A DNA stretch of 60,670 nucleotides, taken from NCBI GenBank assembly GCA_020850775.1, contig JADZEA010000103.1:1-60670 (forward strand). Reading direction: 5' to 3'. Below the pieces are notes generated by a model, which did not search any database, was not told the DNA's origin, and saw only the letters and a program-made list of their open reading frames with translations. Origin of the DNA: a bacterium (lineage in GTDB: Bacteria; CLD3). Within the stretch, counting starts at the first letter, position 1. The number at the start of each line of letters is the position of its first letter. A program made the position numbers and the translations under genes. Below, piece by piece: positions 264 to 52,519 of this stretch.

Positions 264-2588
264 CTACTTCACAAACAGCATTCTTTTAGTTTGGTTGAAG
301 TTGCCACTTTCAAGCCTGTAAAAATAAACTCCTGAACCTACTAAATTCCCATTAGAATCTGTTCCGTTCCAAACAACCGAGCCTTTTTGGTTTTCAAGTT
401 CAAAGTTTTTCACTTCCTCACCAAGAACATTGAAAATAATCAACTTTGCTTTCTCTAAATTTTTAATTTCATAATTAATCGTTGTAGTTGGATTAAACGG
501 GTTCGGGAAATTCTGCGAAAGTGAAAATTTTATTGGAAACTGTTCGTTGTTTTCCAAAATTTCCAAAGGCAAGTTCAACCCATTTGGAGTTGGTTGTAAA
601 AATTGCCAATTGTTGCTTGCGTCTGGTGAACGTCCAAAAGAAACATCAGCGGTTTGATTTCCAAAAACAATTTCATCAAGGATTGTAACTCCATTATTTT
701 CAACAAATAAAATGGTTTCCCCACCTGCACTAAGTTTAAAGTTTGTGTGTAAAATTCCTTGTGTTAAATCATTGTCGCACCAAACTAACAAACGTTCTCC
801 AGCTAAAATTGTAACACCTGGAAATTGCCATTTTGTTAGGTTTGTTGCGTCGTCAGTCAGGAATTTTCCACTCAAAACAAAGTCAGCAGAAGTCGGATTG
901 TAAAGTTCAATCCAATCATCAAACTCACCTGCCTCGTCTGTGTTGATTGTGTTGTTTTGGGCTAAAAACTCGTTAATCACAACTTTTGTCGTGTCAGCAA
1001 ACGGAGTTTGTAAATCTATTTTTTTTGTTTTCGGGTAAGTTTCGTTTTGTGAGTTCACATCGCTTGCAAAAATTTGAAACGCACCAAAACCATTGTTCCC
1101 TAAAGGTGCAATTTTTCCAATCCAACGGTCTGCTTCCTCAACTTTTTTGGTTTGCAGAACTGGTGAGAAAACCATTGGAAAATCGGTGCTTGTTGTGGAA
1201 TTTTGATTGTAAAATTTTATTTTTACTTCGTTCAGGTTAACGTTGCTAAAAGCAGAAACAACAACAGTAATTGAATCCGTTGGCAAAGGATTTTCAGGTG
1301 AAAAATCAATTGCGTAAACAATTGGTTTTGCATTTTGGAAGTTAGTTTGCCCGTTTAAAGTTGAATTTCTTTCGTTAATAAATTGTTTTAAGCCTTTTTT
1401 AACGTGCTGGTTTGAGTAACTTGCAGAAGAGTAAGAATTGCTGAAATCACTCATTGTAAAGCCGTAATCAAGAGTTCTGAAAGTGTCAGTTGCTGCAAAA
1501 GGTGTGATTAAAGTCTTCAAATTGTTTAAGTTTGTTTCCCAGGGTGGAAGGTAGAGAGTGCTTTTGTAAAACAGTAAAAAATGCGTGTAAAGGTTACGAA
1601 ACTTTGCGTTTGCCAAAAGTTTTGTTGCCAAAGGTCTCGGTTCCGTCGTTGCAAAAGTGTAAGGGTTAACGTTTGCCCAATTCGTTCCGAACCAATCAAT
1701 TCCGAAAGTGTTGTCGTAATCGTAAGGAATCAGGTGGAATTTTTGGGTTTGCGGTTCGTGGTAAAGGTAGTAATTATTTTTCAAAAACCAGTAACTGTCC
1801 CAACCTCCAACTAAAACATTAATTGCAAAATACTTTAAGACCTCGGGAACTTCCAGGATTTTCTCAAGCGAATCCTCTAAAAGCGTTGCAGAAGTGTTGT
1901 TTACGACTTTAATTAACCTTGCAAGTTGTGAGTAATCGTCAGCATTTTCGTTAGTTTTCAAATCGTAAGCTCTTCTGCCATTGTTTTCAAACTTGTAAAG
2001 ATTTGGGTCATTTCCAAGGTAAACAAGGTCTGCGGGCCACAAACATTTCCATAAATTTCCTGATTTATCATCAAAGTTTTTTTGCAAAAATTCATCGTCA
2101 ACGTGTTCAACTGAAATGTAAAGCCCGTAGTAAACTCCATTCACGTAAACTGCACAATGAGAAGCACGGCTTGATTTCATTCCAATTGAATTGAACAAAT
2201 CCCAGCAAAGTTTGCTTCTGATGATTGACGGGTCGTTGTGTTCACCGTTTAGGTTTAGTTTTTCAACGCTGTAAAATTTTTTACCGGGAACGAACTCGTT
2301 AAACGAAAGCTGAAACGACTTTTTGTCAGCATCTAAAGAAGTGTTTCCGCGAAGTCCGAAACCAGTTGAATCTATTGTTGTGTCAATGTAAGCATTTGTA
2401 AAATGGACACTTGCGTAACTCATTGAATCACTGTAAATATTTTGGTAAAGCCAATTCAGGAAATTTGGGTTTACAGTAATTTCAACAGTTGCAACTTGTG
2501 AATCATCGTAGATTTTCCAACTTTGGTCATCAGCAAAGAGAAACTTTTGAGAATGGAAAAGGAAAAAAAATATAATTAGCAAATTCAT
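264..2588 (-). CDS. Secreted CotH-family protein (atypical kinase fold) with a lamin-tail domain and a T9SS C-terminal sorting domain
   Basis: N-terminal signal-like MNLLIIFFFLFHSQKFLFA. CotH-type motifs: LNLNGEHNDPSIIRSKLCWDLF, AVYVNGVYYGLYISVEHVDDEFL, IPYDYDNTFG. LTD-like: VVINEFLAQN...FDDWIELYNPTSADFVLSGKFLTDD. T9SS CTD: NFPNPFNPTTTINYEI...SGVYFYRLESGNFNQTKRMLFVK. TAG stop. Confidence 0.8.
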   Translation of the reverse strand: MNLLIIFFFLFHSQKFLFADDQSWKIYDDSQVATVEITVNPNFLNWLYQNIYSDSMSYASVHFTNAYIDTTIDSTGFGLRGNTSLDADKKSFQLSFNEFVPGKKFYSVEKLNLNGEHNDPSIIRSKLCWDLFNSIGMKSSRASHCAVYVNGVYYGLYISVEHVDDEFLQKNFDDKSGNLWKCLWPADLVYLGNDPNLYKFENNGRRAYDLKTNENADDYSQLARLIKVVNNTSATLLEDSLEKILEVPEVLKYFAINVLVGGWDSYWFLKNNYYLYHEPQTQKFHLIPYDYDNTFGIDWFGTNWANVNPYTFATTEPRPLATKLLANAKFRNLYTHFLLFYKSTLYLPPWETNLNNLKTLITPFAATDTFRTLDYGFTMSDFSNSYSSASYSNQHVKKGLKQFINERNSTLNGQTNFQNAKPIVYAIDFSPENPLPTDSITVVVSAFSNVNLNEVKIKFYNQNSTTSTDFPMVFSPVLQTKKVEEADRWIGKIAPLGNNGFGAFQIFASDVNSQNETYPKTKKIDLQTPFADTTKVVINEFLAQNNTINTDEAGEFDDWIELYNPTSADFVLSGKFLTDDATNLTKWQFPGVTILAGERLLVWCDNDLTQGILHTNFKLSAGGETILFVENNGVTILDEIVFGNQTADVSFGRSPDASNNWQFLQPTPNGLNLPLEILENNEQFPIKFSLSQNFPNPFNPTTTINYEIKNLEKAKLIIFNVLGEEVKNFELENQKGSVVWNGTDSNGNLVGSGVYFYRLESGNFNQTKRMLFVK

Positions 2589-5000: not shown

Positions 5001-5079
5001 AGTTTTTCCATAAAAATCAGTAACAAAAAATTTATTTTTTTCGTTACCTTTGAAAATTAAACTTTAGAAAGGTAAAAAA

Positions 5080-6096
5080 ATGTTTTTTAAAACAATCGCT
5101 ATTTTAGCACTAACAATTTCCCCACTTTTCGCGGGAATTGATTTTGTGAACTCCTCCTTTAATGAAGCACTAAAAACTTCAGCAACCAAAAAACTCCCAC
5201 TAATGCTTTCCATTCACGCTTCCTGGTGAGGACCTTGTAAAAAGTTAGACAGGTTAGTCTACTCGGACAAGGAAATCGGTGAATTTACAAGAACAAATTT
5301 TATAAACCTGAAAATTGACGGAGAAAAAGGTGAAGGTCCTGAAATTATGAAAAAATATGGAGTTAAAGGATTTCCGACAATTTTATTAATTGGCGCAAAC
5401 GGTGAAGAACTGGACAGAACAGTTGGTTTTAGAGAAGTTCCTGAATTTTTAGACGTTTTAAACGGTTTCAAAACAGGAGAAACTCACTTAACAAATTACG
5501 TAAAAAAATTAGGCAAAAACCCTGAAAATCTTGAACTTAACTTTGAACTTGGCAAAAAATACGCTGAAAGAAATGACTCACAAAATGCTAAAATTTACCT
5601 TGCAAAAGTTAGCCAAAAAGCCGAAATAAAATCAGACTTGAAAAAAGAATCGGATTTTTTAATCGCTAAAATGGACTTGGAAGAAGGCAAAACAGGAACA
5701 ATGCAAAAATTTCTTGAAGCTTTTGGTGCAACAGAACAAGGTTTAGAAGGCTTTTTTGATTTAGGACGCTACTTTGAAAAGAAAAAAGAAGTTGATTTTG
5801 CTTACAAAACTTATTCACAACTGATTGAAAATCACCCTGAAAATGCAAACGCTTTAAATGCTTTTGCCTGGTTTTCTGCTGAAAATAATCGTGAACTTGA
5901 AAAGGCACTTGAAATTGCGATTAATGCAGTAAAACTTAGTAATGAAAGCCCACAAATTATTGATACTTTAGCAGAAATTTATTTTAGAATGGGTTTCAAG
6001 CAGGACGCAATTAAAACAATTATGCTTGCAATTGAAAAAGAACCAAACGATAACTACTACAAAGAACAACTCAAAAAATTTGAAGATAAAAAGTAA
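5080..6096 (+). CDS. Secreted thioredoxin-fold + TPR protein with an in-frame TGA (predicted selenocysteine) in the redox motif W-U-G-P-C
   Basis: ATG 5080 is preceded by aaggtaaaaaaa. Same-frame translation: MFFKTIAILALTISPLFAGIDFVNSSFNEALKTSATKKLPLMLSIHASW-TGA(5227-5229)-GPCKKLDRLVYSDKEIGEFTRTNFINLKIDGEKGEGPEIMKKYGVKGFPTILLIGANGEELDRTVGF..., continuous with track ORF 5347..6096 (TPR-like C-terminus). The TGA occupies the first Cys position of the thioredoxin WCGPC motif. A stem-loop follows (5233-5272). Confidence 0.7.
5233..5272 (+). promoter_or_regulatory. Candidate bacterial SECIS stem-loop downstream of the in-frame TGA
   Basis: Outer stem 5233-5238 ccttgt pairs with 5267-5272 acaagg. 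After an internal loop, a5243-t5263 and g5244-c5262 pair, t5245 is bulged, and 5246-5250 tagac pairs with 5257-5261 gtcta. The apical hexaloop is aGGTta (5251-5256). The loop Gs lie about 23-25 nt 3' of the TGA. Confidence 0.5.
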
Positions 6097-7464: not shown

Positions 7465-10425
7465 TTAAAAATTCATTTTCACGCCAAACTGAATTTTTCT
7501 TGGTGGCTGGTAATTAGTTGGGATGTCCCGCAAACGATACTCATCGATTGAGTTTACAACTTGATTGTGATTTTCTCTGTCAATTGAAGAAATTTCAGTG
7601 CTGTTTGCTTCACCTGTTTCTCCGAAGACATTTTTTACGATTTTTGTGTCAAACAGATTAAAAACCTTCACAAAAAAAGTTGTGTTAAACATTCCAAATT
7701 GAACGTACTTGTGCATTTCTAAATCAAGGTTAAAGGTTGAAGGTTTGCGTTCTGTATTTTTACGGATAACTGAGTTTCCTTCTTTCCTTGGCGGTTCGTA
7801 AGGATAACCAGAACCGTAACTTCCAATCAATCCAGCTCCGCCAAAGTTATTTTTTTCATAGTTTGCATTAAAATTTAATGTGTGAGCCTGGTCCCAATCA
7901 AGCAAAGAATTTTGTGGGTAAGTGTAATCGTCAGAAGTAAATCTTCCTGTTGTTACAAGGTAAGTGTAGTCAACACTTGCATTAATTTCATTGGTAAACC
8001 TGTTTTCGAAGCTAAACAAAGCACCTTTTGTGTTTCCGTAATCAGAGTTTGTGTTGACTTTGTAGGTTTGAGTGTCAGTTGTGTTTTTCACGTCGTCAGT
8101 AGCTTTCAGGTTCACAACATCCCTGTAAAAAAGATTTAACCCTAAAACTAAATTATTACCAATTCCTTGTTTTAGAGCAATTTCATAACTAACGGTTTTT
8201 TCGTAATCTAAATCCGGGTTTCCCATTGTTTCAGTTTTTCCATCAAGAAAATCTCTGTCCGGTCTGAAAGAACCATTGAGGTAAAGGTCTGAAAATCTTG
8301 GAGTTTGAATAAAATGTCCATAAGAAAAACTCATGTAACCATCTTTAGAAATTGGAAAACTAATTCCAAGTCGCGGACTAAAATTAATCTTTTTTGAGGC
8401 TTTTTTGTATTCCACGTCTCTGTTATCCCAAAGGATTTCACCTGTTTTTTGGTTAATCCAAAGGTTTGCCTGTCCTTGTGCAACCCGTGAACTGTCAAAA
8501 CTTGTAGCTGTTACAAGGTTTGCGTCGTTAATTCTTTTAGGAACTTTTGTGTTTGGGTCAAAAATATCCATTCTCACGCCAGCATTGATTGTAATGTAAT
8601 CGTATTCAATTTTATCCTGGATAAAAGCTGAAAATTCACGTGGTTTGCGATTGTACTGATCTCTCCAGACATCTCTTCTCAAAAGGTCATCAATGTAAGT
8701 TTCTGCTCCTGGAATCGTGTCAACAAAAGATGCGTTAGCTCTCAGAAATTCGTTAACCTGGTTTGCGTTTGTATCAAAAACCCAATAATTTTGAGTAAAA
8801 TCAGGGCTTACCCAAGAGAAACCATTGTAAGGATTTCCAAATGAAGAATTTGGCGTAATTTCAATATTATCATAATCTAAAATGTGGTTTGTAAGTTCGC
8901 CGCCAATTTTTACCAAATGGTGATTATTTAATTGGTTTTCGTAATCAAGTTTAAAATTATAGGAATTTGTTTCTCTGCCAAAAATCTTGTTTGGAACTCC
9001 ACCGGTTGAGAAATTATCCTTAAAACCTTGTTTTACAAGAACGTTAAACATTTGTCTGTCGTCGTTAATGTTTTTGTAGTTGTACTCATCAAAAACATTG
9101 TTTACCGCCGAAAATTTTGCGTTCAGGACCGAACTTTGAGTTAAAGCGTGGTTGTAAGCTAAAATGTGAGTGTAGCCGTAACCTTTTTGAGTTGGTCTTG
9201 CGTCAATATTGTAAAGATAATTTGCGTCCCAGCTTGTGTAGTTTTCCGAATCAAAAATTCCTGTGTAGGAAAGGTTATTTTTTTGTCCGATGTTCCAGAA
9301 AAGTTTTCCAAGTGCAAAAACGTCAGTTCTTTTGTTCATTGATTTAAATTTATTTTCGCCACTTTTTCCAATGTAGTAAGTTCCTGCCGCTGTTGTGTCC
9401 GGTTTTAATCCAGCTTCTTCAAAAGTAATTAACTGACCTGCATCGTTAATCGTTCTCAGTTCTGCAAGGTTTTGAGTTGCACCTTCTTTTACTGCTTCTT
9501 CTTTTGCCGTAACATCCCATGGATTGTAGGTATTTTTTCCGTAAAGAAATCCGTCATCTGATTTGTAGCGAAAATTTGAGTAAAAAGTAAGTTTGTTTTT
9601 TAGAATTGGTCCTTCAATGTTTGCTTGAAAACTATAATTATCTTGTGGAGTAATTTTCCCAACGTGTTGCCAGATTTTATCGTGAGAAGTTACGTAATCA
9701 CCGGTAAAAATTTGGATTCCACCATTAAATTTTTCACCTCCGGCTTTTGCAACAGAATTTATCACTCCGGATTGAGCCTTTCCGTACTCTGCATTAAAAG
9801 CTCCTGTAATCACTTGCAATTCTTGAACTGAGCCAGCTTCAAGCTCAACAGACTGCCCGCCGTCAAAAACATCTGTAACAGAAATTCCATCAATCAGGTA
9901 AGCGACTTCACCTGTTCTGCCTCCGCGAATGTGAATTGCTCCGTCAGAACTTTTGGTAACTCCGGCTTCAAGTCCGATGAGTTCACCAACTCCGTCGATT
10001 GGTGCAGACTCAATTTGTTGAGCGTCTAAAAACGAGGTTGTAGCAGTTACACCTTTTTGCACAAGTTCTTGTTCAGCAACAATCACAACTTCCTCAATCT
10101 TCAGGTCTTCTTGTGAAAGTGCAAAATCTTGTTTTGTTGTCAGGTCAATTGAAATTTTCAGGTTTGAAATTGTAACGTCTTTGTAACCGATGTAACTTGC
10201 TTTCAGAGTGTAAATTCCTGGTGGAATGCCTAAAATAAAATAGTTTCCTTCAATGTCAGTGCTTGCTCCAAACTGTGTTCCGACAACGACAACGCTCCCA
10301 CCAATTATTTCTTCGTTTGTTGTTTTGTCTTTGAGAGTTCCCGAAAATTTTCCTGTAGTTCCGGCACTTGCAAACTGAAACAAAAACGTTCCAAGCAGGA
10401 TTGTAATTAGTAAATATTTTTTCAT
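7465..10425 (-). CDS. TonB-dependent outer-membrane receptor with an N-terminal carboxypeptidase-regulatory-like domain
   Basis: Signal peptide MKKYLLITILLGTFLFQFASA. CarboxypepD_reg-like GGSVVVVGTQFGASTDIEGNYFILGIPPGIYTLKASYIGYKD. Plug-like segment (IHIRGGRTGEVAYLIDGISV), a long beta-rich C-terminus, and a terminal aromatic residue (...FGVKMNF). Confidence 0.85.
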   Translation of the reverse strand: MKKYLLITILLGTFLFQFASAGTTGKFSGTLKDKTTNEEIIGGSVVVVGTQFGASTDIEGNYFILGIPPGIYTLKASYIGYKDVTISNLKISIDLTTKQDFALSQEDLKIEEVVIVAEQELVQKGVTATTSFLDAQQIESAPIDGVGELIGLEAGVTKSSDGAIHIRGGRTGEVAYLIDGISVTDVFDGGQSVELEAGSVQELQVITGAFNAEYGKAQSGVINSVAKAGGEKFNGGIQIFTGDYVTSHDKIWQHVGKITPQDNYSFQANIEGPILKNKLTFYSNFRYKSDDGFLYGKNTYNPWDVTAKEEAVKEGATQNLAELRTINDAGQLITFEEAGLKPDTTAAGTYYIGKSGENKFKSMNKRTDVFALGKLFWNIGQKNNLSYTGIFDSENYTSWDANYLYNIDARPTQKGYGYTHILAYNHALTQSSVLNAKFSAVNNVFDEYNYKNINDDRQMFNVLVKQGFKDNFSTGGVPNKIFGRETNSYNFKLDYENQLNNHHLVKIGGELTNHILDYDNIEITPNSSFGNPYNGFSWVSPDFTQNYWVFDTNANQVNEFLRANASFVDTIPGAETYIDDLLRRDVWRDQYNRKPREFSAFIQDKIEYDYITINAGVRMDIFDPNTKVPKRINDANLVTATSFDSSRVAQGQANLWINQKTGEILWDNRDVEYKKASKKINFSPRLGISFPISKDGYMSFSYGHFIQTPRFSDLYLNGSFRPDRDFLDGKTETMGNPDLDYEKTVSYEIALKQGIGNNLVLGLNLFYRDVVNLKATDDVKNTTDTQTYKVNTNSDYGNTKGALFSFENRFTNEINASVDYTYLVTTGRFTSDDYTYPQNSLLDWDQAHTLNFNANYEKNNFGGAGLIGSYGSGYPYEPPRKEGNSVIRKNTERKPSTFNLDLEMHKYVQFGMFNTTFFVKVFNLFDTKIVKNVFGETGEANSTEISSIDRENHNQVVNSIDEYRLRDIPTNYQPPRKIQFGVKMNF

Positions 10426-10515: not shown

Positions 10516-11820
10516 TTAGAAACTGTTTAGGTCAATCATTTTAATTTCACCAAAGTAATCAATGTACTTTGGATTTTTGAGTTCCCGTAGCTTTTCAAGA
10601 ATTTCTGTACATCGGTTGGAGGCTTCAAAAAGGTTATCAAGGTATCTTTTCAGGTTTTCATCAAGTTTTTGGTAAGAAGTCATTTGGATAAGTGTGATGT
10701 TTCCCAAAATAGCTGCAAGAGGTTGATTTAACTGATGATTTGCGGTTACAACCATTGCATAAAACATTTTTAGTTTTTCTGCTTCAACCAATTTAGATTG
10801 TGTTTCTTTGAGTTCTTTGTTGAGCTTTACAAGTTCAATATTTTTTAGCCGATAAATTTCTTTTTCCTGTTCTTTTTTTTGTGTTTGGAATTTTACCTCA
10901 AACTCAGCAATTTTTTTATTTTTTTCCTCATTCAAAATTTCTTTATTCTTTTGCAGGTAAAGGTTTAAATACTCTTCAGTTTTTTCGTAATTTTTTTTGA
11001 TTAGGTAAGCACGAAAGGTAAACTCATAAATTTTCTCTATCAGTTTATTAGCTTTTAGTTCAATTGCAATTTGCAATGCTTCTTCTAAATGTTCTAACGC
11101 CTCGTCCGCTTTACCAATTTCAAGCAAATCGTGAGCTAAATTTGCCAAAGTTATGCAATGATTGTAATCATTATTTTTATGTTTATTCAATTCGTATGCT
11201 TTTGAATGAAAATAAAATGCTTTTTCAAAATTTTTTAAAATAATGTAAGTGTTTCCAAGGTTTGCAAAAGCGGTTGAAAGCAGAGATTCATTCTCTTTAA
11301 CCATGTCCAACACTTTTTCAAAGTAAGGCAGGGCTTTTTCAGGATGCTCTAATTCGTTGTAAACTAAACCGATACCGGAATAAATCTTAGCTATTTCTGT
11401 CTTATCAATATTTTCATCAAAATACTTTAAGGCTTTTTCGTAAGTTTCCAATGCTTTAGAATGTTCATTTTGTACCCTTAAAATTGCTCCGTAAAGGATT
11501 AAAGAACTGCCAATCCCTGTTTTATTTTGATATTTTTCTGATAACTTAAGACATTGTAAACAGTTTTTAAGCGATAATTCGTAATTGCCTTTAAAAAAAT
11601 ATATCGTAGAAATTTTTATTAAAAACTGCCAGGCTAAATCTTCTCTGTTGTATTTTTTTGTTAACTTAGTAGCCTGAGTCAAAACATCAATTCCCTCATC
11701 AAATAAATTATTACTAGCATAAACTTTAGCTAAGTCTATTAAAATTTCTATTCTTTGCTGTTTTACCGCACCCTTAAGTTTAGCCTTTAATTCTTCAATT
11801 TTTTCCGGTTGAAACGACAT
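10516..11820 (-). CDS. TPR-repeat protein with a C-terminal histidine-kinase DHp (HisKA-like) segment but no ATPase domain
   Basis: Multiple TPR-like repeats (e.g. AKIYSGIGLVYNELEHPEKALPYFEKVL), a coiled coil, then an H-box-like VVTANHQLNQPLAAILGNITLIQ. The protein ends ~60 aa later with no N/G1/G2 boxes. I placed the start at ATG 11820 (MSFQPEKIEEL) rather than track start 11844. Confidence 0.6.
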   Translation of the reverse strand: MSFQPEKIEELKAKLKGAVKQQRIEILIDLAKVYASNNLFDEGIDVLTQATKLTKKYNREDLAWQFLIKISTIYFFKGNYELSLKNCLQCLKLSEKYQNKTGIGSSLILYGAILRVQNEHSKALETYEKALKYFDENIDKTEIAKIYSGIGLVYNELEHPEKALPYFEKVLDMVKENESLLSTAFANLGNTYIILKNFEKAFYFHSKAYELNKHKNNDYNHCITLANLAHDLLEIGKADEALEHLEEALQIAIELKANKLIEKIYEFTFRAYLIKKNYEKTEEYLNLYLQKNKEILNEEKNKKIAEFEVKFQTQKKEQEKEIYRLKNIELVKLNKELKETQSKLVEAEKLKMFYAMVVTANHQLNQPLAAILGNITLIQMTSYQKLDENLKRYLDNLFEASNRCTEILEKLRELKNPKYIDYFGEIKMIDLNSF

Positions 11821-13432
11821 TTTTTTCCTTAAATAAATTTTCAAGTTTCACCTTGTCAAAAACAAGATTTCCATTTTCCCTTGCAAAACTCTCTTCCCTG
11901 CCAACAATCCTTTTAATTTCTAAATCTAAGTAATCATTCAAAATAAACTCTTTTCTCTCAACAAAACCAACTCCTTTTTCCTTTTCTAAAATTTCAAAGT
12001 AGATAAAAACTTGCTCCTTTTCAAAAGCTCCAAGAATTTCACCTGCTTTAAAACTAACAACCTTTCCACTATCTTTTATTTCAATAATTTCTGCAACATT
12101 CACAAAACCAAGTGTGTCAACCTTAATTTTATTGGTGTTAACAAAAATTTTGCTCCTAAGTTTTTCCCGTTCAACTTCCTTTTGGCAAGCAAACCTGACA
12201 ACCTTAAATTTTTGTTCACTCTCAAAACGATACTTGTTTTTCTCAAAGTGTTCCTTTAGTTTTTGCTCCGAAGTATCAATTTTTGAAATTTGACTTGCAA
12301 GGTAATTGTTTTTCAAAATCCTGTCCCGTTCAATTTCCATTTTTTCCTGCAAAACTACGTTTTCAAAAAGCCCTGATTTTATCGCTTCATCCGAAAGTAT
12401 TTTTTTCATAATCACTGATTCAACAGCTCCAAGTGGGTTTTCTTTCATTTCTCTGTGAGAAAGAAAAGGCACAAAAGCTAAAAAATCTTTTACTTTTAAT
12501 TCTTCCCCACCAAAGGTTGCTAAAACATCTTTCTCACTCAAAAGATGCTCAATTTCATTAATTTTACTCTGTGGATTTTCCCAATTATTTTTGTTCAGGT
12601 AAGGTTGCAAATTTTTAAAAAGGCTCTTTAAAACCGCCGTTTTAATCCTAACATCTTTTTCAGCAAACAGTTTTTGGACAAATTTATCCGAAGCATTTTT
12701 GTTCCGCAAGTTTTTGAATTTTGTGGAAATCTTGGATTTTTGTGCCTGAAACTCACTTTCAGGAATAAAAACCTTACCTCTTAAACTTTTTATTTTAAGC
12801 AAGTGGTAGCCAAAAGCAGACTTGAAAGGCTTTGAAATTTCGTCTTTTTTGAGCTTGTAAGCGTTCTCTTCAAAATCAAAATCCATTTCCCCAAAACCAA
12901 AAAATTTATCGTAACCTGCATTTTGGGCAAGGCTTGAGTCTGTTCCGACGTAATGCTTAAAAGCTGCTTCCTCAAAAGTTATTTTTCCACTTTGAATTTC
13001 CTCAAAAATCGAATCAATTTCAGCTTTGTTTTTTGAAAAAATATTTCCAACCTTGATTTCTGTGTTCATCCTTCGGAAAGTCTCACGAATTTCTGCTTCT
13101 GTTGGTTCAGGAAATTTTGCATCAATTTGCGCCTCAAAAAATTTTTCAGTCAGCAATTTTCTCTTGTAAAACTCAAGTTCAACCTCATCTTGTTCCGAAA
13201 ATTTTATCCCTGTTTTTTTTGATTTTTCGGCAATTCCTTTGTTTTGGTAAAGTGTGTAAAGATACTCAACTCTGTTTTGGTAAGAATCCATTAACGGAGT
13301 TTTTGCAAGCAAATTCGTGTAAAGCTCCTTAAAAGTCTCAACCGAAATTTCTCCGTAATCAGAACTGAAAATTTTTTCCTGCTCTCCCGAACAAGCCAAA
13401 ACTAACAACAACAAAAACAATATTTTTCGCAT
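11795..13432 (-). CDS. Lipoprotein-type peptidyl-prolyl isomerase (parvulin/PpiC, SurA/PrsA-like)
   Basis: Lipobox LLLLVLACSG. Parvulin-like segment IFSKNKAEIDSIFEEIQSGKITFEEAAFKHY...SKPFKSAFGYHLLKI. Ends on TGA. Confidence 0.7.
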   Translation of the reverse strand: MRKILFLLLLVLACSGEQEKIFSSDYGEISVETFKELYTNLLAKTPLMDSYQNRVEYLYTLYQNKGIAEKSKKTGIKFSEQDEVELEFYKRKLLTEKFFEAQIDAKFPEPTEAEIRETFRRMNTEIKVGNIFSKNKAEIDSIFEEIQSGKITFEEAAFKHYVGTDSSLAQNAGYDKFFGFGEMDFDFEENAYKLKKDEISKPFKSAFGYHLLKIKSLRGKVFIPESEFQAQKSKISTKFKNLRNKNASDKFVQKLFAEKDVRIKTAVLKSLFKNLQPYLNKNNWENPQSKINEIEHLLSEKDVLATFGGEELKVKDFLAFVPFLSHREMKENPLGAVESVIMKKILSDEAIKSGLFENVVLQEKMEIERDRILKNNYLASQISKIDTSEQKLKEHFEKNKYRFESEQKFKVVRFACQKEVEREKLRSKIFVNTNKIKVDTLGFVNVAEIIEIKDSGKVVSFKAGEILGAFEKEQVFIYFEILEKEKGVGFVERKEFILNDYLDLEIKRIVGREESFARENGNLVFDKVKLENLFKEKNVVSTGKN

Positions 13433-24683: not shown

Positions 24684-25961
24684 TTATTTACACTTTAATT
24701 CTTGCAATTTTTTCAAACAGTTAATTTGAATGTCTGTTTTTTCCACACCTTTTGCTGCAATTGAAAGGTTCATCCAACCTTGACAATCTTCAGCTTTTAA
24801 TTGTGTGTACTTTTCAAAATTTGCAAAAGCCTTTTGCGCATCGCCTTCTTTTCCACGTTTCAGGTAAGCGTAACCAATATTATTAATCACTGCTTCATTG
24901 TTTGGCTCTTTGGCAAGCACTTTTTCAAACTTTTCAACAGCACAATCAAAATCTTCCTGCTCCAAACAAGTGTTCCCTTGTTCTGCAATAATTCCAGTTG
25001 AGCCTTCAGGGTCAAGCTCTAAAAGTTTTTGTTTAAACTCGTTGGATTTTTTCTTGTCGCCAATTTTTTCGTAGCAGTAAGCTGAATTATTGATTGCGTC
25101 AATATTTTTTCCATCAATTTTCAGAAGTTCGTCGTAGCTTTTGATTGCGTCTTGAAATTTTTCCTCTTCAAGGTCAAAAGAAGCAAGTCTTCCTAAAATT
25201 TTCACCTTTTCTTCGTCCTTTTTGGCAATTTTCAGAGCTTTGTTGTAAAATATTTTTGCTTCACTTTCTTTGTTAGTTTGTTCAGCAGAAATTGCGTAGT
25301 TGTAAAGATTACCAAAACTCTTGGAAAACAATTCTTCGTTAATTGAGTTTGCAACTTTTAGGTTTTCGTAAGCATTACCAAAAAACTTTTGTTGAATTTT
25401 TTCATCGGTTTGTTGTGCAGCTGTTTTAATGAAAAAATATCCCATTCTTTGAGTTTCAGCAAAAACCCTTTCTTCTTCATTTGCAATTTCTTTTTTCGTT
25501 CCACCGTCAGGCTTAGAGTTTTTTGCTTTGTTCAAGTAATCAACTGCGCTATTAATGAATTTCCAGTAATTTGTCCAATAAGTGTCATCATTTAATTTAG
25601 CAGTTAAAATTGCGGTTTGTTTTTCAGTATTTTTTGCTTGAATAACTTCTGGTTTTACGTCCGGAGCTTTCATTTCTGCATCAAGTTTAGACAAAGTTTC
25701 ACCGAGTTTTCCTGCTTCCTCATATTTTTTGTTGTAAGAGTTGTAGTAACCAAACTGAACTTTTCCCATCAAAAACAGTCCTTTGGGATCGTTTGGTTTT
25801 TCCAACAGGTGAGTTTGTAAAATGCTGTCTGCGTAAGCCCAATCATTTTGTGAAATCCTTAGTTCTGCCGTTGTAATTTCCACTCTTCCGGCAAAAGAGT
25901 TTGTAAAAGTTAAACCTGAAATCGCTAAAAAAAATAGGTTTCTTTTCGTGAGGAATCTCAT
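24684..25961 (-). CDS. Secreted TPR-repeat protein
   Basis: Signal peptide MRFLTKRNLFFLAISGLTFTNSFA. Multiple TPR-like units (e.g. AINNSAYCYEKIGDKKKSNEFKQKLLELDP; VINNIGYAYLKRGKEGDAQKAFANFEKY). Its ATG overlaps the mtnA TGA (ATGA). Confidence 0.7.
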   Translation of the reverse strand: MRFLTKRNLFFLAISGLTFTNSFAGRVEITTAELRISQNDWAYADSILQTHLLEKPNDPKGLFLMGKVQFGYYNSYNKKYEEAGKLGETLSKLDAEMKAPDVKPEVIQAKNTEKQTAILTAKLNDDTYWTNYWKFINSAVDYLNKAKNSKPDGGTKKEIANEEERVFAETQRMGYFFIKTAAQQTDEKIQQKFFGNAYENLKVANSINEELFSKSFGNLYNYAISAEQTNKESEAKIFYNKALKIAKKDEEKVKILGRLASFDLEEEKFQDAIKSYDELLKIDGKNIDAINNSAYCYEKIGDKKKSNEFKQKLLELDPEGSTGIIAEQGNTCLEQEDFDCAVEKFEKVLAKEPNNEAVINNIGYAYLKRGKEGDAQKAFANFEKYTQLKAEDCQGWMNLSIAAKGVEKTDIQINCLKKLQELKCK

Positions 25962-27001
25962 TTTTTTTCTCCTAAAATAAAGTTTGATAAATCGTTAAAA
26001 GGATTGTAAAACACTTGCCTTTCAGTAATGATTGCACTAATCAAGTCGTTTGGCGTAACGTCAAAAGCTGGATTGTAAATATTTACTTCTTTGGGGGCAA
26101 TTTGCTTATCTGAAATTAAAATTATTTCGTTTTTATCCCGTTCTTCAATTGGAATTTGTTTCCCGTTTTTTATTGAAAAATCAAAAGTTGAGAGTGGTGC
26201 CGCAACATAAAAAGGAATTTTATGCTTTTGGCAATTCACCGCAAGACTGTAAGTTCCGATTTTGTTTGCAGTGTCTCCGTTTGAGGCAATTCTATCCGCT
26301 CCAACAATCACCGCATCAATTTTTCCCTGAGCCATACAAAAAGCTGCCATTCCGTCACAAATCAAAGTTGTGTCAATTTTACGTTGCGTCAGTTCCCAGG
26401 CTGTTAATCTTGAGCCTTGTAAAAGTGGTCGTGTTTCATCAGCAAAAACCGAGATTTTTTTCCCGTTTTCAATTGCTGAAAAAATAACGCCAAGTGCCGT
26501 TCCGTAATCAGCTGTTGCAAGTCCTCCTGCGTTACAATGAGTTAGAACAGTCATCCCGTTTTTCAAAAGAACCTGCCCGTTTTTCCCAATATTTCTACAA
26601 ATTTCTTTGTCTTCCTGCAAGATTTTTTGAGCCTCACCAAGAATTATCTTTTTTAGCTGTTCAATTTCACCTGAAAAATTCTCAACAATTTTTCCAATTC
26701 TTTCAATTGCCCAAAAAAGATTTACAGCAGTTGGACGAGTTTCTCCAAGCACTTTTGCAACTTGTAAAAAATGCTTTTTAAACCCAACTAAATCTCCGTT
26801 AAAATCACGTGTTCCAAGATAAAGCGTAAAAGCTCCTGCAATTCCAATTGCCGGCGCTCCTCTGACTTCAAGCCTTTTTATCGCATCGCAAGCAACATCA
26901 AAATCATTAATTTTTAAGTAGTTAAATTCAACGGGAAGTTTTGTTTGAGCAACAATTTGTAAGGAATTTTCAACCCAGGAAACAGTATCAAAATTTTTCA
27001 C
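25958..27001 (-). CDS. mtnA: S-methyl-5-thioribose-1-phosphate isomerase
   Basis: LEVRGAPAIGIAGAF, THCNAGGLATADYGTALGV, ADETRPLLQGSRLTAWEL, VGADRIASNGDTANKIGTY. Ends on TGA. Confidence 0.9.
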   Translation of the reverse strand: MKNFDTVSWVENSLQIVAQTKLPVEFNYLKINDFDVACDAIKRLEVRGAPAIGIAGAFTLYLGTRDFNGDLVGFKKHFLQVAKVLGETRPTAVNLFWAIERIGKIVENFSGEIEQLKKIILGEAQKILQEDKEICRNIGKNGQVLLKNGMTVLTHCNAGGLATADYGTALGVIFSAIENGKKISVFADETRPLLQGSRLTAWELTQRKIDTTLICDGMAAFCMAQGKIDAVIVGADRIASNGDTANKIGTYSLAVNCQKHKIPFYVAAPLSTFDFSIKNGKQIPIEERDKNEIILISDKQIAPKEVNIYNPAFDVTPNDLISAIITERQVFYNPFNDLSNFILGEKK

Positions 27002-38883: not shown

Positions 38884-39264
38884 TCAACTCAGATAAGAGG
38901 AGTAAAGAATGAAAAAAGGAACTTTGTGTAAGGGTGCCTTAATTTCATTTTGGAAATGATTAAGAGTAATTTTCTTTAAAAATCTAACTTTGTTAAAGCT
39001 ATTTGTAAGACTTTTAACAAAGTTATGAGTCTTTTCTCGTTTTAACTCTTTTGTAGAAATAACGACAAATTGATGCATTGATTTGTGGTTTAATTCACAA
39101 ATTTTTGCAGAACATTGGTGATTGTGAGAATCTGCTTCAAGACTTATTTGGGAAAAACATTCAAACAAGTTTTCACAATCGGACTCACAAAAAAAATTAC
39201 TTTCAATCGAAATGAAGGAAAATATAAAAAGCGAGATAAATATTTTTCGAGCTAAAAGATTCAT
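38884..39264 (-). CDS. Small secreted Cys/His-containing protein of unknown function, upstream of the HME-RND operon
   Basis: 126 aa. Signal-like MNLLARKIFISLFIFSFISI, then FFCESDCENLFECF...DSHNHQCSAKICELNHKSMH. Ends on TGA. No family recognised. Confidence 0.45.
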   Translation of the reverse strand: MNLLARKIFISLFIFSFISIESNFFCESDCENLFECFSQISLEADSHNHQCSAKICELNHKSMHQFVVISTKELKREKTHNFVKSLTNSFNKVRFLKKITLNHFQNEIKAPLHKVPFFILYSSYLS

Positions 39265-39565
39265 TTTATTCTTTACTTAAAAATTTAATCTAAAAAACTT
39301 AAAAAGTGATGTAAAGGTATTATTTTCAAATGTTTCATTAAGCAAATAACACGAAAAAAACATCTCTTTTCTTTTTAAGTGAAAAAGATACATCTTTAAT
39401 TTTGAAAACACAAGAAATTTATTCTAACTTTACAGGAAAAACCCTTACGAAATACTCAGGCTTGCCCGATAAAAGACTTTTTGGAAGAAAAAAGGTTTTC
39501 TTAGAAGTCTCGGCAAAACTTTATACTTCCAAAAAGTTCAACCCTCTTTTAAAATCTTTTTTTTA

Positions 39566-39903
39566 CTACTTCAGCAGAACCATTTTTTTCGCTTCCGAAA
39601 AGCCGTTTTTTGTCTCTAACCGGTAAAAATAAATTCCCGATGAAACTTGTTTCCCACTGAAATCCGTGCCGTTCCAGTTTGATGTGTGTGAACCTTCGTT
39701 TTGGTTTTCGCTGACCAAAGCCCTGACAAGCTCTCCTTTTGTGTTGTAAACTTCAAGTCTTACATTGTTTGTTTTTGCAAGCGTGTAGGAAATCGTTGTC
39801 GTTGGATTGAAAGGATTCGGAAAGTTTTGCTTAAGATTGTATCGAAGTGTTGCTTGTGAATTTTCTTCTGCAAAATAAACTGAAAAATTTAAGGTAAAAA
39901 CAA
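39566..39903 (-). pseudogene. Decapitated remnant of a T9SS-secreted protein gene (only the C-terminal sorting domain remains)
   Basis: The minus-strand frame has no start codon: ...AEENSQATLRYNLKQNFPNPFNPTTTISYTLAKTNNVRLEVYNTKGELVRALVSENQNEGSHTSNWNGTDFSGKQVSSGIYFYRLETKNGFSEAKKMVLLK* (TAG at 39566-39568). The frame runs straight into the IS fragment. Confidence 0.7.
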
Positions 39904-39905
39904 CA

Positions 39906-40263
39906 ATGCTGTCTAAACCAAAAATAAAAAATCAAACGAATTTATATTTTTCTCTGAGAGATACTCTTAACAAAAAACACCCTTTGTTCATTTTAGCCGA
40001 AAAAATTGACTGGGACAGGTTTGAAAAAGCATTTTCTCAACTTTATTGTCAAAATAATGGACGTCCTGCCAAACCAATTCGTTTAATGGTTGGACTTTTG
40101 ATTCTGAAACATCTGCGAAATATTTCCGATGAAAGTGTGGTTGAACAATGGTCAGAAAATAATTACTATCAATATTTTCGGTGAATGGTTTCATTTTTCC
40201 ACAGTTTTCTCAAAATCACTTGCTTGTTTTTTTGTTCCTGCCGTTAACACTTTTCCCTTTTAG
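39906..40263 (+). mobile_element. IS5/IS1182-type transposase gene remnant (N-terminal DUF772-like part only, frameshifted and truncated)
   Basis: MLSKPKIKNQTNLYFSLRDTLNKKHPLFILAEKIDWDRFEKAFSQLYCQNNGRPAKPIRLMVGLLILKHLRNISDESVVEQWSENNYYQYF matches the conserved N-terminus of IS5-family transposases. TGA at 40182. A +1 shift continues GEWFHFSTVFSKSLACF... to TAG at 40261. No DDE domain follows. Confidence 0.7.
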
Positions 40264-40488
40264 TTTTCAACTTTACTGTTTTTTTGTGCTTTGAAACATC
40301 TTAAACACCGAACTTACGGCAACCGACAAACTTTTCTGCTAAAAAAATCGTGTCAGGTATTGATTTTGCGTATTAATTCTTCAAGGTCGTAAACCCGGTC
40401 GTATTCTTTTTTAGCCCTATTTTTTTTTAAGACCCCTGCTTTTCTAAAAACTTCCCTGCAAATTTACTTCCCTTTTTCCTGTTTCTAA

Positions 40489-40523
40489 ACAAAAAAAGCC
40501 AAATCAAAAACTTGACCTGGCTT
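40489..40523 (-). terminator. Rho-independent terminator after the giant T9SS gene
   Basis: Minus strand: aagccag-(loop)-tggctt followed by TTTTTTTG. Confidence 0.55.
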
Positions 40524-40549
40524 TAATTTTTTCTAAGCTAAAAAGCGAT

Positions 40550-43500
40550 TTATTTTAGTAAAACCATCTTCTGCGTCTTAACAAAACTGCCTGCTTCAAG
40601 CCTCGCAAAATAAATTCCGCTCGCTACACTTCTGCCTTTCGCATCCGTGCCGTTCCATTCAAAAACATGGTAAGCGGCTTCTAAATTTCCATTAACCAAA
40701 CTCTTTACAACCTGACCTAACGCATTGTAAATCGTCAGCTTAACAAAAGCCCTTGCAGGAATTCCAAACTTAATTTTTGTGTTTGGATTAAATGGATTTG
40801 GGTAGTTTTGCTCCAAACTGAAAGCCTTTGGAATTTCGTTTTCTCCATTTTCTATCGCATCGGTAACATCCGCAATTAAGTTTACAACGTAGTTTGGTGT
40901 TGCCGTTGTGTTGTTTGCGATTTCCAAAGTGCTTGTTAAATTTCCTATTGACATTGGAAAAACTGTCAGTTCAACCAACACTGAATCACCAACTCCAACC
41001 GTTAACGGGAAAGTCGGCTGATTTGTAAATTGTGCGTTTAATGGGTTTGTCGTTCCAAAAGTCATCCCCGAAATTGACAAAATCCCCGTTCCCGTGTTTT
41101 TGACTACTAAGTTCGCTGCAGAAGGTTGTGTTACCAAAATTACTCCAAAATTCACCTCGTTTGCAACAATGTTTGGTGTTCCCGTAGCAATTCCCGGCGT
41201 TGCCACAACAAGATTTCCGGGGTGCGATTCAAGGTTCGTTCCGTTCACGTCGTAAACTACTGTCGCTGCGTAAGAGTACTGGTTCGGATTCGTTACGCTA
41301 AAATCATCGTAATTTTGTGTCGTTCCTGTAAAAATTACTGAACCGTTTGTTACTACTTCTTCAGAATTTAAAGCAGCACCGTTTAGCTTGTAAAGTTTGT
41401 AGGAAACAATGTTCCAGCTTGGATTTAAATTGATTTCGTTTCCACCCTTTGAAAGTTTTTTTCCAAAAATTTCTGCTTTTGGTGAATTTACAACCGGAGC
41501 AACTACAGCCAAAGGTTCAACAAAGCAACGAATCATCGGAATTATTTGTCCATAAATTGGAGCAAGCGTTTCAATCGGTGCCCAGTTTCCACCTGTCCCC
41601 TGAATAAAATGAGTGTTCACGTTAAAAACGTAAGGCGGATTTAAGCTCGTGTCTCCTCCAAGTGAAATCGGGTCACTTCCAATCTGTTCAACTCCAATTC
41701 CAAAAGCACCACTTCCAATTGCAAATCCAATTCCCGTAACCGGGTTCACAAAATCAAAGTTTACAAAACTTCCTGAAGTTGTTTGTGTGAAAGGTCCAAG
41801 TTCCGTAAGTAAAGCTCCGGGAACGTTTGTTACTGTGTCCCAACCGTAAATTTTTACTTTGTAAGTTGAAGCAGGCAAAGCACCGTTATCAATAAAAACC
41901 TTAGCAGAGTTTAATTGTGCATTCCCTGAAATTTGCGTTTGAGTTGCGATGTCAAACTTACTTATAAAAATTGCTGGTCCCGGACTGTTTATTCCTGGTG
42001 GAGAGTTTGGTAAAATTGACTGAAATTCACTCGTTCCGTCATCGTACTTGATTTCAATTCCGTTTTCGCCAGGCTGTCCCCAAGCCAAAGGAATGTGGTT
42101 TGGAACAAGCGATTCCGCGTTCAAAGTTCCTGGTGGAATTAGCCTGATTTCAAAACTGTAAGGAGTTCCTGTTCCGTTTGTCGGGTTGTACGGAAAGTAA
42201 GCCGTGTTTTCGCCCGTGTCTGAGTCCGTTGCACTGATAAAATACTCAATCACTACGTCAAAAGCGTTTGGTGCAGGAATTTGAGCGTAAAACGAGTCGT
42301 TAGCCGCTGCGGTCATCGGAACGTTGTTCCAGGTTGTGTTGCTTGCAAGTTTCCAGAAAAGCTCAACGCTGTCCGCCTGAACTCCTGAAAGTGTGTCTGT
42401 AACTTTTGCCCAAACCGGGAAATTTTGGTTGTGAATGTCTGTGTCGTTTTGGTTGGTAAGGTTTACTACGCTTGGTGGAAAGTTGTCTTCAGAAGTAAAC
42501 CAGACTGCAAGTTGGTCTTGTAAAAAAACATCGTCGTTAATCACTTGCAAGCCATCAGTTGCGGCAAGATTTTCAATCCCGACTGAACAGAAAGTTGCAT
42601 CATTTTCATCAATGTCCAAGTACTGAAACTCAATCGTTCCGTCCTGCCACAAAATAATTTCCATCGTCATCGGAACGCTTCCACCGAAAGCTGGAACCTG
42701 ATTCCATTGAATAATTACACGCGGAAGGTTTGGGTCAGCGTAGTACCAAACTTGCCCACCTGAACCAGGATTCAAATCGTCCCAAAAAATTGAAATCATT
42801 CCGTTAGGTTGCTGAGCGTTTGGAAAAGCTAATCCACCGGGTCCACCAAGTGAACTGCTTCCTGCATCAAAATTTACGTAACCGTTTGAACCGATAAACA
42901 TCGTCGTGAAAGTATCGTTGTAAAGCGGAAAAGCCCAGGGCAACGTAACTTGTGAGAAAGAATCATCAGTTAAATTTTGGTTCTGTGAAGCGGGATTCGT
43001 TGAAACGTCAACAAAACTGAAAGAAACCGCTCCGTTTAAACTGCTGACCCACGTGTGTCCGTAAAGGTCAGGTCCGCCGGAAGCTGCAACGACGTTTGTT
43101 TGTGAACTTGCTGAAAGTGCGCTTTCGTTTCCTTCAACGTCCAAAGCCGTAACAAAGTAAAAATTCGCTCCGTTTGCAGGGTTGCCGTCTGTGTAAGTTT
43201 GGTTTGAAGAAGAAAGTGTCGTTAACAAAACCGGCGTTCCGAAAGCACTCGCTCCTCTGTAAACTTTGATTGAAGCAAGGTCGTTCAAAGGTGTTCCGTC
43301 TGCGTTTGTTGTTGGGTTCACCCAGGTAAGGTCAACTCCGTTACCTGTGTTTAATGTTGAAGTTAATCCAGTTGGTGAAGCCGGAGCTAAAACATCGTTT
43401 GGAGTTGCTGAAGCAATGTTTGAAGGTAAACTTTCAACAATTTGTCCGCTAACATTATCCACAAAAATTGAAGTTACAACGTAAAAATACTCTGTTCCGT

Positions 43501-48035: not shown

Positions 48036-48674
48036 CTAAAGTATGATTTTTTTTTGAGCTAAAGCTAATTTCAAATTTTCCGCAAAACAATAAAAAGACT
48101 TTTTTACGTTGTAAAAATTTTGTGTTGGAAAACCGTCTGCAACAAGACCAAGCATAATTTTTGTGTTTTTTTCTCCGCTTCCGGCAAACTTGATTTTGCC
48201 GATTTCGTCAAGTTTTTCCAAGTAAGACTCTGACGATAAAACTTGTTCAAGTTTCTTTTGTGAAGAAGTTTCAATTTCACTAAGTTTATTTGAAAGTTCT
48301 TTTTTGTTTGCACAACACCAATTTTCAATTGCACTGCAAGGTATCATTTCTGCGAATCTGTTTTTTATGTTTTTTCTAATTTTTAGAATAATTTTATTGT
48401 TTGTTATGAAAATTTGAAAATTATTGAATTTTTCATCTGCATCAATGTGAAAGCAAAAAATACAATCTTTTTCTGTCTTTAAAGTTGCTAAAGCATACTG
48501 AATGAAATCATTGAGTTTAGTTTGATTAAAGATGTCGGAACCTAAAACATCTTTAAAAATTTCTTCAAACTCTGCCTGTTCCTGCCCTAAAAATTCTAAA
48601 GCAAGTTCAATAAATTTTTGTGTAACTTTTTGAGATGTTTTATCTTCTGTAAAAAAATAAATTTTCAATTCCAA
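48036..48674 (-). CDS. Small (~210 aa) protein, TOPRIM-like/DUF4276-like candidate nuclease partner of the upstream ATPase
   Basis: TTG starts at 48674 or 48668; the latter has GGAG 7 nt upstream and overlaps the ATPase TGA as TTGA. N-terminal strand plus acidic residues KIYFFTEDKT, later CIFCFHIDADE (DxD-like), then IPCSAIENW and a C-terminal KKSFYCFAENL. The family assignment is from memory of the pattern, not a search. Confidence 0.5.
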   Translation of the reverse strand: MELKIYFFTEDKTSQKVTQKFIELALEFLGQEQAEFEEIFKDVLGSDIFNQTKLNDFIQYALATLKTEKDCIFCFHIDADEKFNNFQIFITNNKIILKIRKNIKNRFAEMIPCSAIENWCCANKKELSNKLSEIETSSQKKLEQVLSSESYLEKLDEIGKIKFAGSGEKNTKIMLGLVADGFPTQNFYNVKKSFYCFAENLKLALAQKKIIL

Positions 48675-52477: not shown

Positions 52478-52519
52478 TTTCACTCCAAATTTTACTTCTG
52501 AATTTAACAGCAAGTCAGC

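Follow-up and report, generated by a model that had tools for sequence, protein, structure and literature searches.

A predicted selenocysteine codon in the redox motif of a putatively exported thioredoxin-TPR protein from a relative of Calditrichaeota

Thioredoxin (Trx)-fold proteins with a UxxC motif, in which U stands for selenocysteine (Sec), are the commonest class of bacterial selenoproteins. More than 80 selenoprotein families, many of them Trx-like, are listed in the catalogues of 2022 and 2026. In the bacterial UxxC proteins, Sec takes the place of the N-terminal Cys of CxxC, homologues with Cys are frequent, a bacterial Sec insertion sequence (bSECIS) is found just after the UGA codon, and the genes are annotated as truncated. 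The same combination is predicted for a gene at positions 5080-6096 of a 60,670-nucleotide (60.7-kb) stretch of bacterial DNA, contig JADZEA010000103.1 of assembly GCA_020850775.1, the whole of which is called the window here. We conclude, with a probability of roughly 85%, that 5080-6096 is one genuine Sec-encoding gene, whose product of about 338 residues is predicted to be exported and in which a Trx domain is followed by tetratricopeptide repeats (TPR). The doubt mostly concerns the possibility that this particular genome is without Sec machinery. The gene is a probable addition to a well-known class and possibly represents a new family.

Compared to the catalogued UxxC families, the window protein scores best on Thioredoxin_7 and differs by its predicted signal peptide and its fusion to a TPR part of ~200 residues. 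Neither a UxxC family of PF13899 (Thioredoxin_7) nor any TPR fusion is present in the 2022 and 2026 catalogues, and a UxxC family combining Trx_7 and TPR is absent from the NCBIfam selenoprotein models. The "Thiol:disulfide interchange protein" family (PF13098, UxxC; reference WP_011366075.1) shares domain and motif with the window protein, these being the two features compared. Two further families, Trx7/PDZ (NF041199) and TsoB (NF045694), are similar in that a Thioredoxin_7/DsbD-gamma-like domain is fused to another module. However, the motif of Trx7/PDZ is CxxU and not UxxC, and the window protein did not match this model at an E value of ≤0.01. TsoB has a rhodanese domain and a UxxxxU motif; here the window protein reached 59.7 bits (cutoff, 805), and the match was confined to the Trx-like C terminus of the model (positions 456-566), aligned with residues 19-125 (E 1.4e-16).

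The domain order, N-terminal Trx and C-terminal TPR, is shared with the chaperedoxins CnoX/YbbN (PMC8129009, PMC10998233). CnoX is cytoplasmic and has no signal peptide, whereas the window protein has a signal-like N terminus, and Escherichia coli CnoX has SQHC where the window protein has a CxxC-type motif. The CnoX/YbbN model was not among the NCBIfam matches of the window protein, and Sec forms of CnoX are not listed in the catalogue. The closest solved Trx domain, next to DsbD-gamma, was that of the Bacteroides "putative disulphide-isomerase" 2KUC (E 2.5e-26, residues 19-127), with which the window protein shares WCGPCK and a KxDxEKGEG segment. Both 2KUC and the gamma domain of DsbD are periplasmic Trx folds of reductive pathways, as is predicted for the window protein, but they are Cys forms without TPR. 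Furthermore, DsbD-gamma is attached to an electron-transfer domain in the membrane, and 2KUC consists of one domain only.

Translation of 5080-6096 on the plus strand revealed one frame of 338 codons, the predicted Sec codon included, which ends with TAA and contains a single internal stop. This stop, the TGA at 5227-5229, has the context LPLMLSIHASW-TGA-GPCKKLDRLVYSD, also written KKLPLMLSIHASW-TGA-GPCKKLDRLVYSDKEIGEF. In the mechanical list of open reading frames (ORFs), the frame is broken into 5080-5229 (49 aa) and 5347-6096 (249 aa, starting with Met 5347). Thus, two statements of the first-pass annotation of this DNA were confirmed, namely that the frame is open from ATG 5080 except for one TGA and that the ORF track begins the gene at Met 5347. 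The Cys-form homologues P0005-P0008 aligned full-length, over 87 to 98% of the window protein. Most likely, the gene was mis-called by being cut at the TGA "stop." The coordinates of the features are compiled in Table 1.

Besides the window gene, three orthologues have the TGA; they are from Calditrichaeota metagenome-assembled genomes (MAGs), whose proteins are 46 to 54% identical to the window protein; orthologue DNA was taken from GCA_008501735.1, GCA_964351555.1, and GCA_030429225.1, with Logan assemblies as a further source. All are built in the same way, with a 49-codon ORF, the TGA, and the remainder in frame (~252 aa), and none has a second stop. The context of the TGA in the orthologues is PLMLS[IV]HASW-TGA-GPCKFLDRSVYTDE or HASW-TGA-GPCKFLD. 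In line with this layout, the nearest database relatives, P0002-P0004 (46 to 52% identity), are annotated as ~252-aa proteins corresponding to the C-terminal 73% only. A scan of metagenome contigs for more members of the window clade retrieved one irrelevant TPR match only.

In the wider family (signal peptide, Trx_7, and TPR), which was collected by scanning one genome per species, the column of the first Cys of CxxC is TGA in 10 of 26 full-length members and Cys in 16. All TGA-bearing full-length members have exactly one in-frame stop, always at this column. The 10 Sec forms are the window gene, the three orthologues of its clade, and six more distant relatives. By locus, the column is TGA in L001-L007, L011, L018-L020, L025, and L028, and TGY in 16 others. 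W49, C50, and C53 are invariant columns of the family alignments. The Sec forms have WUGPC in the window clade, whereas the motif is WUSWC or WUGWC in those from Fidelibacterota/Marinimicrobia-type and other MAGs; the Cys forms have WCGPC, WCRWC, WCGWC, or WCVWC. In a neighbor-joining tree, Sec forms appeared at at least three places, and the Cys form L021 was nested among Sec forms. Alternation of U and C at the catalytic Cys is the standard signature defining selenoprotein families (PMC1088965). The proposal that the stop replaces the first Cys of a Trx-type CxxC motif therefore agrees with the 16 Cys-bearing homologues, and the alternation itself, in several lineages, was found as the first-pass annotation had anticipated for a Sec codon.

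Both flanks of the TGA are under purifying selection. The ratio of nonsynonymous to synonymous substitutions (dN/dS; Nei-Gojobori) was 0.02 to 0.22 for codons 1-49, 51-89, and 90-140. For the 39 codons from the TGA to Met 5347 it was 0.13 to 0.17 between the window and the orthologues, with dS saturated or nearly so. These 39 codons, which are discarded by the ORF callers, thus belong to the most constrained stretches of the gene. This bears on the idea that the locus is a decaying pseudogene or the product of an assembly or sequencing error, in which the TGA would be a functionless nonsense mutation of an ancestral TGC or TGT Cys codon. Indeed, TGA is one substitution away from either codon, and gene callers give two ORFs at the locus. 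However, the same TGA, always as the lone stop, was assembled independently from three other species of the clade and recurs in six distant relatives, and a hairpin downstream of it accompanies the TGA forms and not the Cys forms (see below). Because the flanks are constrained and the orthologues have the same lone TGA, we excluded decay, assembly error, and a reading as two genes, and regard a nonsense mutation as very improbable. The close TGA-keeping homologues had no further disabling mutation.

From the fourth nucleotide after the UGA, the RNA can fold into an outer stem of 6 bp (CCUUGU/ACAAGG), an internal loop, an upper stem of 7 bp with one bulged U (5 bp contiguous), and the apical loop AGGUUA. 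This reproduced exactly the stem-loop described in the first-pass annotation. The apical loop starts 21 nt after the UGA, and its Gs are located 23 to 24 nt after it. The minimum free energy (MFE) of the hairpin was -13.0 kcal/mol (z = -2.16 versus dinucleotide shuffles; 6 of 200 shuffles were as stable), and the wider 101-nt context was not unusual in stability (z = -0.61). According to the consensus given in a review of 2026, a bSECIS has an apical loop of 3 to 9 nt, an upper stem of 4 to 16 bp, a distance of 16 to 37 nt between UGA and loop, and an MFE of ≤-7.5 kcal/mol (PMC13188914, Fig. 2A), with a G within the first two loop positions that is usually followed by G or U (PMC13188914). The window hairpin lies within this consensus in four of four respects: a 6-nt loop with G at position 2 and G thereafter, a stem of 5 to 7 bp, a distance of 21 nt, and the above-mentioned MFE.

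All three TGA-keeping orthologues retain the hairpin core UAGAC-AGGUYA-GUCUA (4/4 with the window). There it reads UAGAC-AGGUCA-GUCUA, differing by one loop base, despite the proteins being only ~52% identical. The core stem contains uncommon codons: in both lineages, AGG makes up 7 to 17% of the Arg codons and GTC 8 to 13% of the Val codons. Furthermore, a small hairpin with a GG-containing loop 16 to 21 nt after the UGA was present in 10/10 Sec forms and mostly absent from the Cys forms. Using a SECIS-like hairpin statistic based on stem enumeration, we obtained values of at least 11 for 10/10 Sec forms and a median of 2.5 for the Cys forms (Mann-Whitney P ~ 1e-5, for sequences that are not phylogenetically independent).

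The distant Sec forms have a second hairpin type, (AU)CGRC-UGGAU-GYCG(AU), whose loop is spaced 16 nt from the UGA. One compensatory change from G-C to A-U is seen in this type, and 92% of its cells were paired, versus 16 to 56% in slid controls. Comparison of L018:3130-3174, L019:3130-3174, L020:1351-1395, L025:3079-3123, and L028:3073-3117 with window:5227-5281 revealed that the registers differ: counted from Sec, the loop covers codons +8/+9 in the window clade and codons +6/+7 in the clade of the Fidelibacterota type. Since they are at different codon positions, the two hairpin types are not homologous in register, which points to a SECIS that originated more than once, or moved, within a single gene family.

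At the orthologous loci L001, L002, and L006, selD is located two genes upstream of the Trx-TPR gene (TIGR00476, 346 bits versus a cutoff of 125). An in-frame TGA interrupts this selD as well, in the context VKCAG-TGA-ASKLSP (MFRKDKYRLTQTVKCAG-TGA-ASKLSP), at the canonical catalytic Cys/Sec site of SelD. The selD hairpin (stem AACUU/GAGUU, loop starting with AG) resembles the Trx-TPR hairpin only loosely. As judged from its sequence, selD of these related Calditrichaeota MAGs encodes a Sec-containing SelD mis-annotated as N-terminally truncated. A Sec-containing SelD implies a working Sec pathway in that lineage, which thus appears to decode Sec. MtnA encoded in the window is 74 to 75% identical to MtnA of GCA_030429225.1, the identity to all others being 61% or less, and GCA_030429225.1 also carries a Sec-form Trx-TPR orthologue. 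At window positions 24684-27001 on the minus strand, mtnA is followed by a gene for a TPR protein of ~425 to 431 aa with a 4-nt ATGA overlap, and this order is shared with GCA_030429225.1 and a Logan contig (L088/L089). Because of the MtnA identity and the shared mtnA-TPR order, we place the window organism near these Calditrichaeota MAGs.

Could the UGA be recoded otherwise than by Sec? Low-level read-through of UGA by tRNA-Trp or tRNA-Cys is established in bacteria, and the alternatives to Sec would be such near-cognate read-through, with insertion of Trp or Cys, or a lineage-wide reassignment of UGA. However, the window genes are intact under translation table 11, and TGA terminates 5 of the 32 long window ORFs: 11795-13432 (parvulin), 25958-27001 (mtnA), 38884-39264, 48665-49915, and 51563-52513 (pyrD). 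When the other in-frame TGAs and the TGA-terminated ORFs of the window were checked, a selenoprotein-like context was found only at 5227. The first-pass annotation had called TGA a normal stop in this DNA and named mtnA, the parvulin gene, and the ATPase genes; this was correct for the first two but not for the last, since none of the three ABC-type ATPase ORFs ends with TGA. Moreover, the site is the catalytic Cys column of CxxC, which is the classic Sec site, a hairpin of the bSECIS type is suitably spaced downstream, and the relatives have a Sec-type selD. Recoding by means other than Sec is accordingly very unlikely, and decoding of this UGA as Sec is favored. The refutation tests proposed in the first-pass annotation that were run (U/C alternation, search for a second lesion, and, for the hairpin, conservation of its core though not of its outer stem) also favored Sec.

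Several results weigh against a Sec-encoding gene. Neither a tRNA-Sec or any other RNA (ARAGORN; Rfam scan at the gathering threshold) nor selA, selB, or selD (tblastn with SelD; NCBIfam on 30 ORFs) was found in the 60.7-kb window. None of the Rfam SECIS models matched in a whole-window scan at the gathering threshold, which is unsurprising because these models are lineage-specific; a permissive Rfam scan of 5180-5320 gave a chance snoRNA match only. The outer stem of the window hairpin is not kept in the orthologues, so that of the hairpin conservation considered in the first-pass annotation, the core held (3/3) and the outer stem did not. With -6.9 and -6.0 kcal/mol, the SECIS-like structures of the orthologues narrowly miss the -7.5 kcal/mol of the consensus. 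The core stem is invariant in the window clade and so offers no covariation there. Over the hairpin, 7 of 10 codons were identical, which is not above the background of 0.57; this underpowered comparison of synonymous sites is weak because shared AT-rich codon bias alone gives 57% identical codons. Synonymous-codon resampling for the window hairpin alone yielded a weak P of 0.11, since the peptide L-D-R-x-V-Y itself predisposes to a stem. Finally, a conserved gene neighborhood hinting at a substrate or redox partner was not found when the window was compared with the orthologous loci. The flanking genes in the window, for a CotH protein of the type IX secretion system (T9SS), a CHASE2-cyclase, and an M48 peptidase, are not conserved there. 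A scan of metagenome contigs for more members of the window clade retrieved one irrelevant TPR match only.

The lack of Sec machinery genes in the window would be expected if the organism had lost, or never had, Sec decoding. Then the TGA would terminate translation and the gene would be a recent relic, with no product beyond the 49-residue peptide and, perhaps, a protein of TPR alone that starts with Met 5347. That selD does not adjoin the window gene, unlike in L001, L002, and L006, also speaks for this. On the other hand, the window copy has no second lesion, and its hairpin is the most stable of its clade (-13.0 versus -6 to -7 kcal/mol). Furthermore, the codons between TGA and Met 5347 are constrained as described above, and the nearest relatives use Sec. 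We therefore consider a relic improbable, if less so than the other two alternatives, although a very recent loss would be compatible with these data, and retain the conclusion that the gene most likely encodes Sec.

Table 1. Coordinates of the predicted selenoprotein gene, its parts, and selD of the related loci
Feature	Position	Strand	Evidence or remark
Full coding sequence of the predicted selenoprotein	5080..6096	+	Frame with one TGA; Cys-form homologues; orthologues built alike
Predicted N-terminal signal peptide, MFFKTIAILALTISPLFAG	5080..5136	+	Read by inspection
Trx-fold domain (Thioredoxin_7/DsbD-gamma-like), about residues 25-127	5152..5460	+	Pfam; PDB 2KUC; DsbD-gamma
Active-site motif W-U-G-P-C (TGG TGA GGA CCT TGT)	5224..5238	+	Aligns with WCGPC, WCRWC, WCGWC of Cys-form homologues
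Predicted Sec codon, in-frame TGA	5227..5229	+	TGA at the same column in other family members
SECIS-like stem-loop	5233..5272	+	Outer stem 5233-5238/5267-5272; conserved core 5246-5261; apical loop AGGUUA 5251-5256
Internal Met, false start of ORF callers	5347..5349	+	ORF list; 39 upstream codons constrained
All-helical C-terminal domain of TPR repeats, about residues 135-335	5482..6084	+	Pfam; homologue model; Foldseek
selD with in-frame TGA	L001:4920-5981; L002:368-1429; L006:5716-6777	-	Each called as a 327-aa protein

For the domain searches and Pfam scores, Cys was put in place of the TGA stop. The protein matched Thioredoxin_7 (PF13899) with 52.9 bits (E 4e-14; cutoff, 27), Thioredoxin_2 (PF13098) with 44.5 bits (cutoff, 27), and Thioredoxin (PF00085) with 41.1 bits (cutoff, 23.5). 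In the C-terminal half, TPR_19 and TPR_17 were above the cutoff and other TPR families below it. The designation as a Trx-fold and TPR protein given in the first-pass annotation was thus borne out. P99-T100 (GFPT) is invariant in the family alignments and, going by the Trx fold, would form the cis-Pro loop facing the redox motif. The N terminus, MFFKTIAILALTISPLFAG, contains a basic residue, a hydrophobic core, and a small-residue end, and the N termini of the homologues are all comparable. This points to a signal peptide of the Sec-translocon type and to a periplasmic or secreted protein.

As a stand-in for the window protein, we used an AlphaFold2 model of the Cys-form homologue P0005 (predicted local distance difference test [pLDDT] score, 91; predicted template modeling [TM] score, 0.82). 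The model comprises a Trx fold followed by 13 TPR-type helices at a pLDDT above 90; residues 1-33, which are equivalent to the signal-like segment of the window protein, are disordered. With Foldseek, TPR superhelices were the best matches. The gamma domain of DsbD superposed on the modeled Cys homologue with a TM score of 0.74 to 0.76 and a root mean square deviation (rmsd) of 2.6 Å, and DsbD-gamma chains were also matched by sequence. The only PDB matches to the whole architecture of the P0005 model were 3QOU and 3QDN, the YbbN/CnoX proteins of E. coli and Salmonella. Their superposition was poor (TM 0.22 to 0.29; rmsd, ~22 Å), so the orientation of the Trx and TPR domains differs from that in CnoX.

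For the insertion of Sec in this organism, for export, for the direction in which the redox reaction runs, and for what the TPR domain does, we propose the following. Because the hairpin fits the bSECIS model and the relatives use Sec, we infer that SelB with Sec-tRNA(Sec) would bind the apical stem-loop at 5246-5261 and that UGA 5227 would be decoded as Sec. The pre-protein would then be exported via the Sec translocon and its signal peptide removed. With Sec in place of the nucleophilic N-terminal Cys of CxxC, the U-G-P-C center would provide a Trx-type nucleophile in the periplasm. Sec may attack substrate disulfides, or sulfenic or other oxidized thiols, and Cys53 would resolve the intermediate and release the substrate. 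Most likely, the activity is that of a periplasmic thiol-disulfide oxidoreductase. Given the Trx-type xGPC motif, it probably acts as a reductase or isomerase; this motif and the kinship with DsbD-gamma suggest the reductive direction. Judging from the architecture, the TPR domain may offer a surface to which proteins or peptides bind, so that clients are selected or held. Such a client-holding role would be analogous to that in the CnoX chaperedoxins and in the TPR client-binding modules of periplasmic maturation systems. The parallel with CnoX also suggests that redox chemistry and client binding act in combination.

Promoter and terminator scans were uninformative. The sequence TACCTTTG at 5045-5052, 28 nt upstream of ATG 5080, matches TAnnTTTG, the -7 element of the Bacteroidota type, and this motif is also present 33 to 39 nt upstream of two other window genes (23515, plus strand; 32915, minus strand). 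However, it was found upstream of 5 of 32 genes, with about 3 expected, and due to this lack of enrichment it was dropped as a promoter candidate.

Elsewhere in the window, very large secreted proteins are encoded at 264-2588 (minus strand), 40550-46504 (minus strand), and 53579-60421 (plus strand). The first has a CotH kinase domain, a lamin-tail domain, and a C-terminal sorting domain for type IX secretion (Pfam, NCBIfam), and the 1984-aa window protein has, by eye, a T9SS-tail-like end. A SusC-like receptor is encoded at 7465-10425. Large secreted proteins with T9SS tails together with a SusC-like receptor fit an organism of the Fibrobacterota-Chlorobiota-Bacteroidota (FCB) group. The largest gene-free stretch, 39265-40549, contains remnants only. 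By eye, a 92-aa ORF at 39906-40184 (plus strand; GRPAKPIRLMVGLLILKHLRNISDE) is like the N-terminal part of an insertion sequence-type transposase, and a 50-aa ORF at 39566-39718 (minus strand) has an end resembling a T9SS sorting tail (SGIYFYRLETKNGFSEAKKMVLLK). A TTG-started ORF of 442 aa, TPR/histidine kinase-like, at 10516-11844 (minus strand) overlaps the end of the parvulin gene (11795-13432, minus strand) by 50 nt; its true start is probably located further downstream.

The results call for a correction of annotations, since the window gene, its orthologues in public MAGs, and the neighboring selD genes have all been deposited as truncated proteins, an example being "hypothetical protein DWQ06_12155" of Calditrichaeota CLD3. 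They also provide a candidate for an exported selenoprotein in which a redox center would be joined to TPR repeats that bind clients. In the lineages concerned, selenoproteomes have received little study, as have the thiol-disulfide systems of the periplasm. Tentatively, and at somewhat less than even odds, the window protein may be the first recognized member of an uncatalogued family of exported, "periplasmic chaperedoxin-like" Thioredoxin_7-TPR selenoproteins. In such a family, Sec and Cys would have replaced each other repeatedly in lineages of the FCB group (Calditrichota, Fidelibacterota/Marinimicrobia, and others), and the SECIS at two nonhomologous codon positions would reflect independent invention or sliding. 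The general picture is unchanged, UxxC Trx-fold proteins already being the most frequent bacterial selenoproteins. With its natural Sec/Cys pairs (up to about 60% identity) and two hairpin placements, the family is a convenient system for studying how a SECIS originates within a coding sequence.

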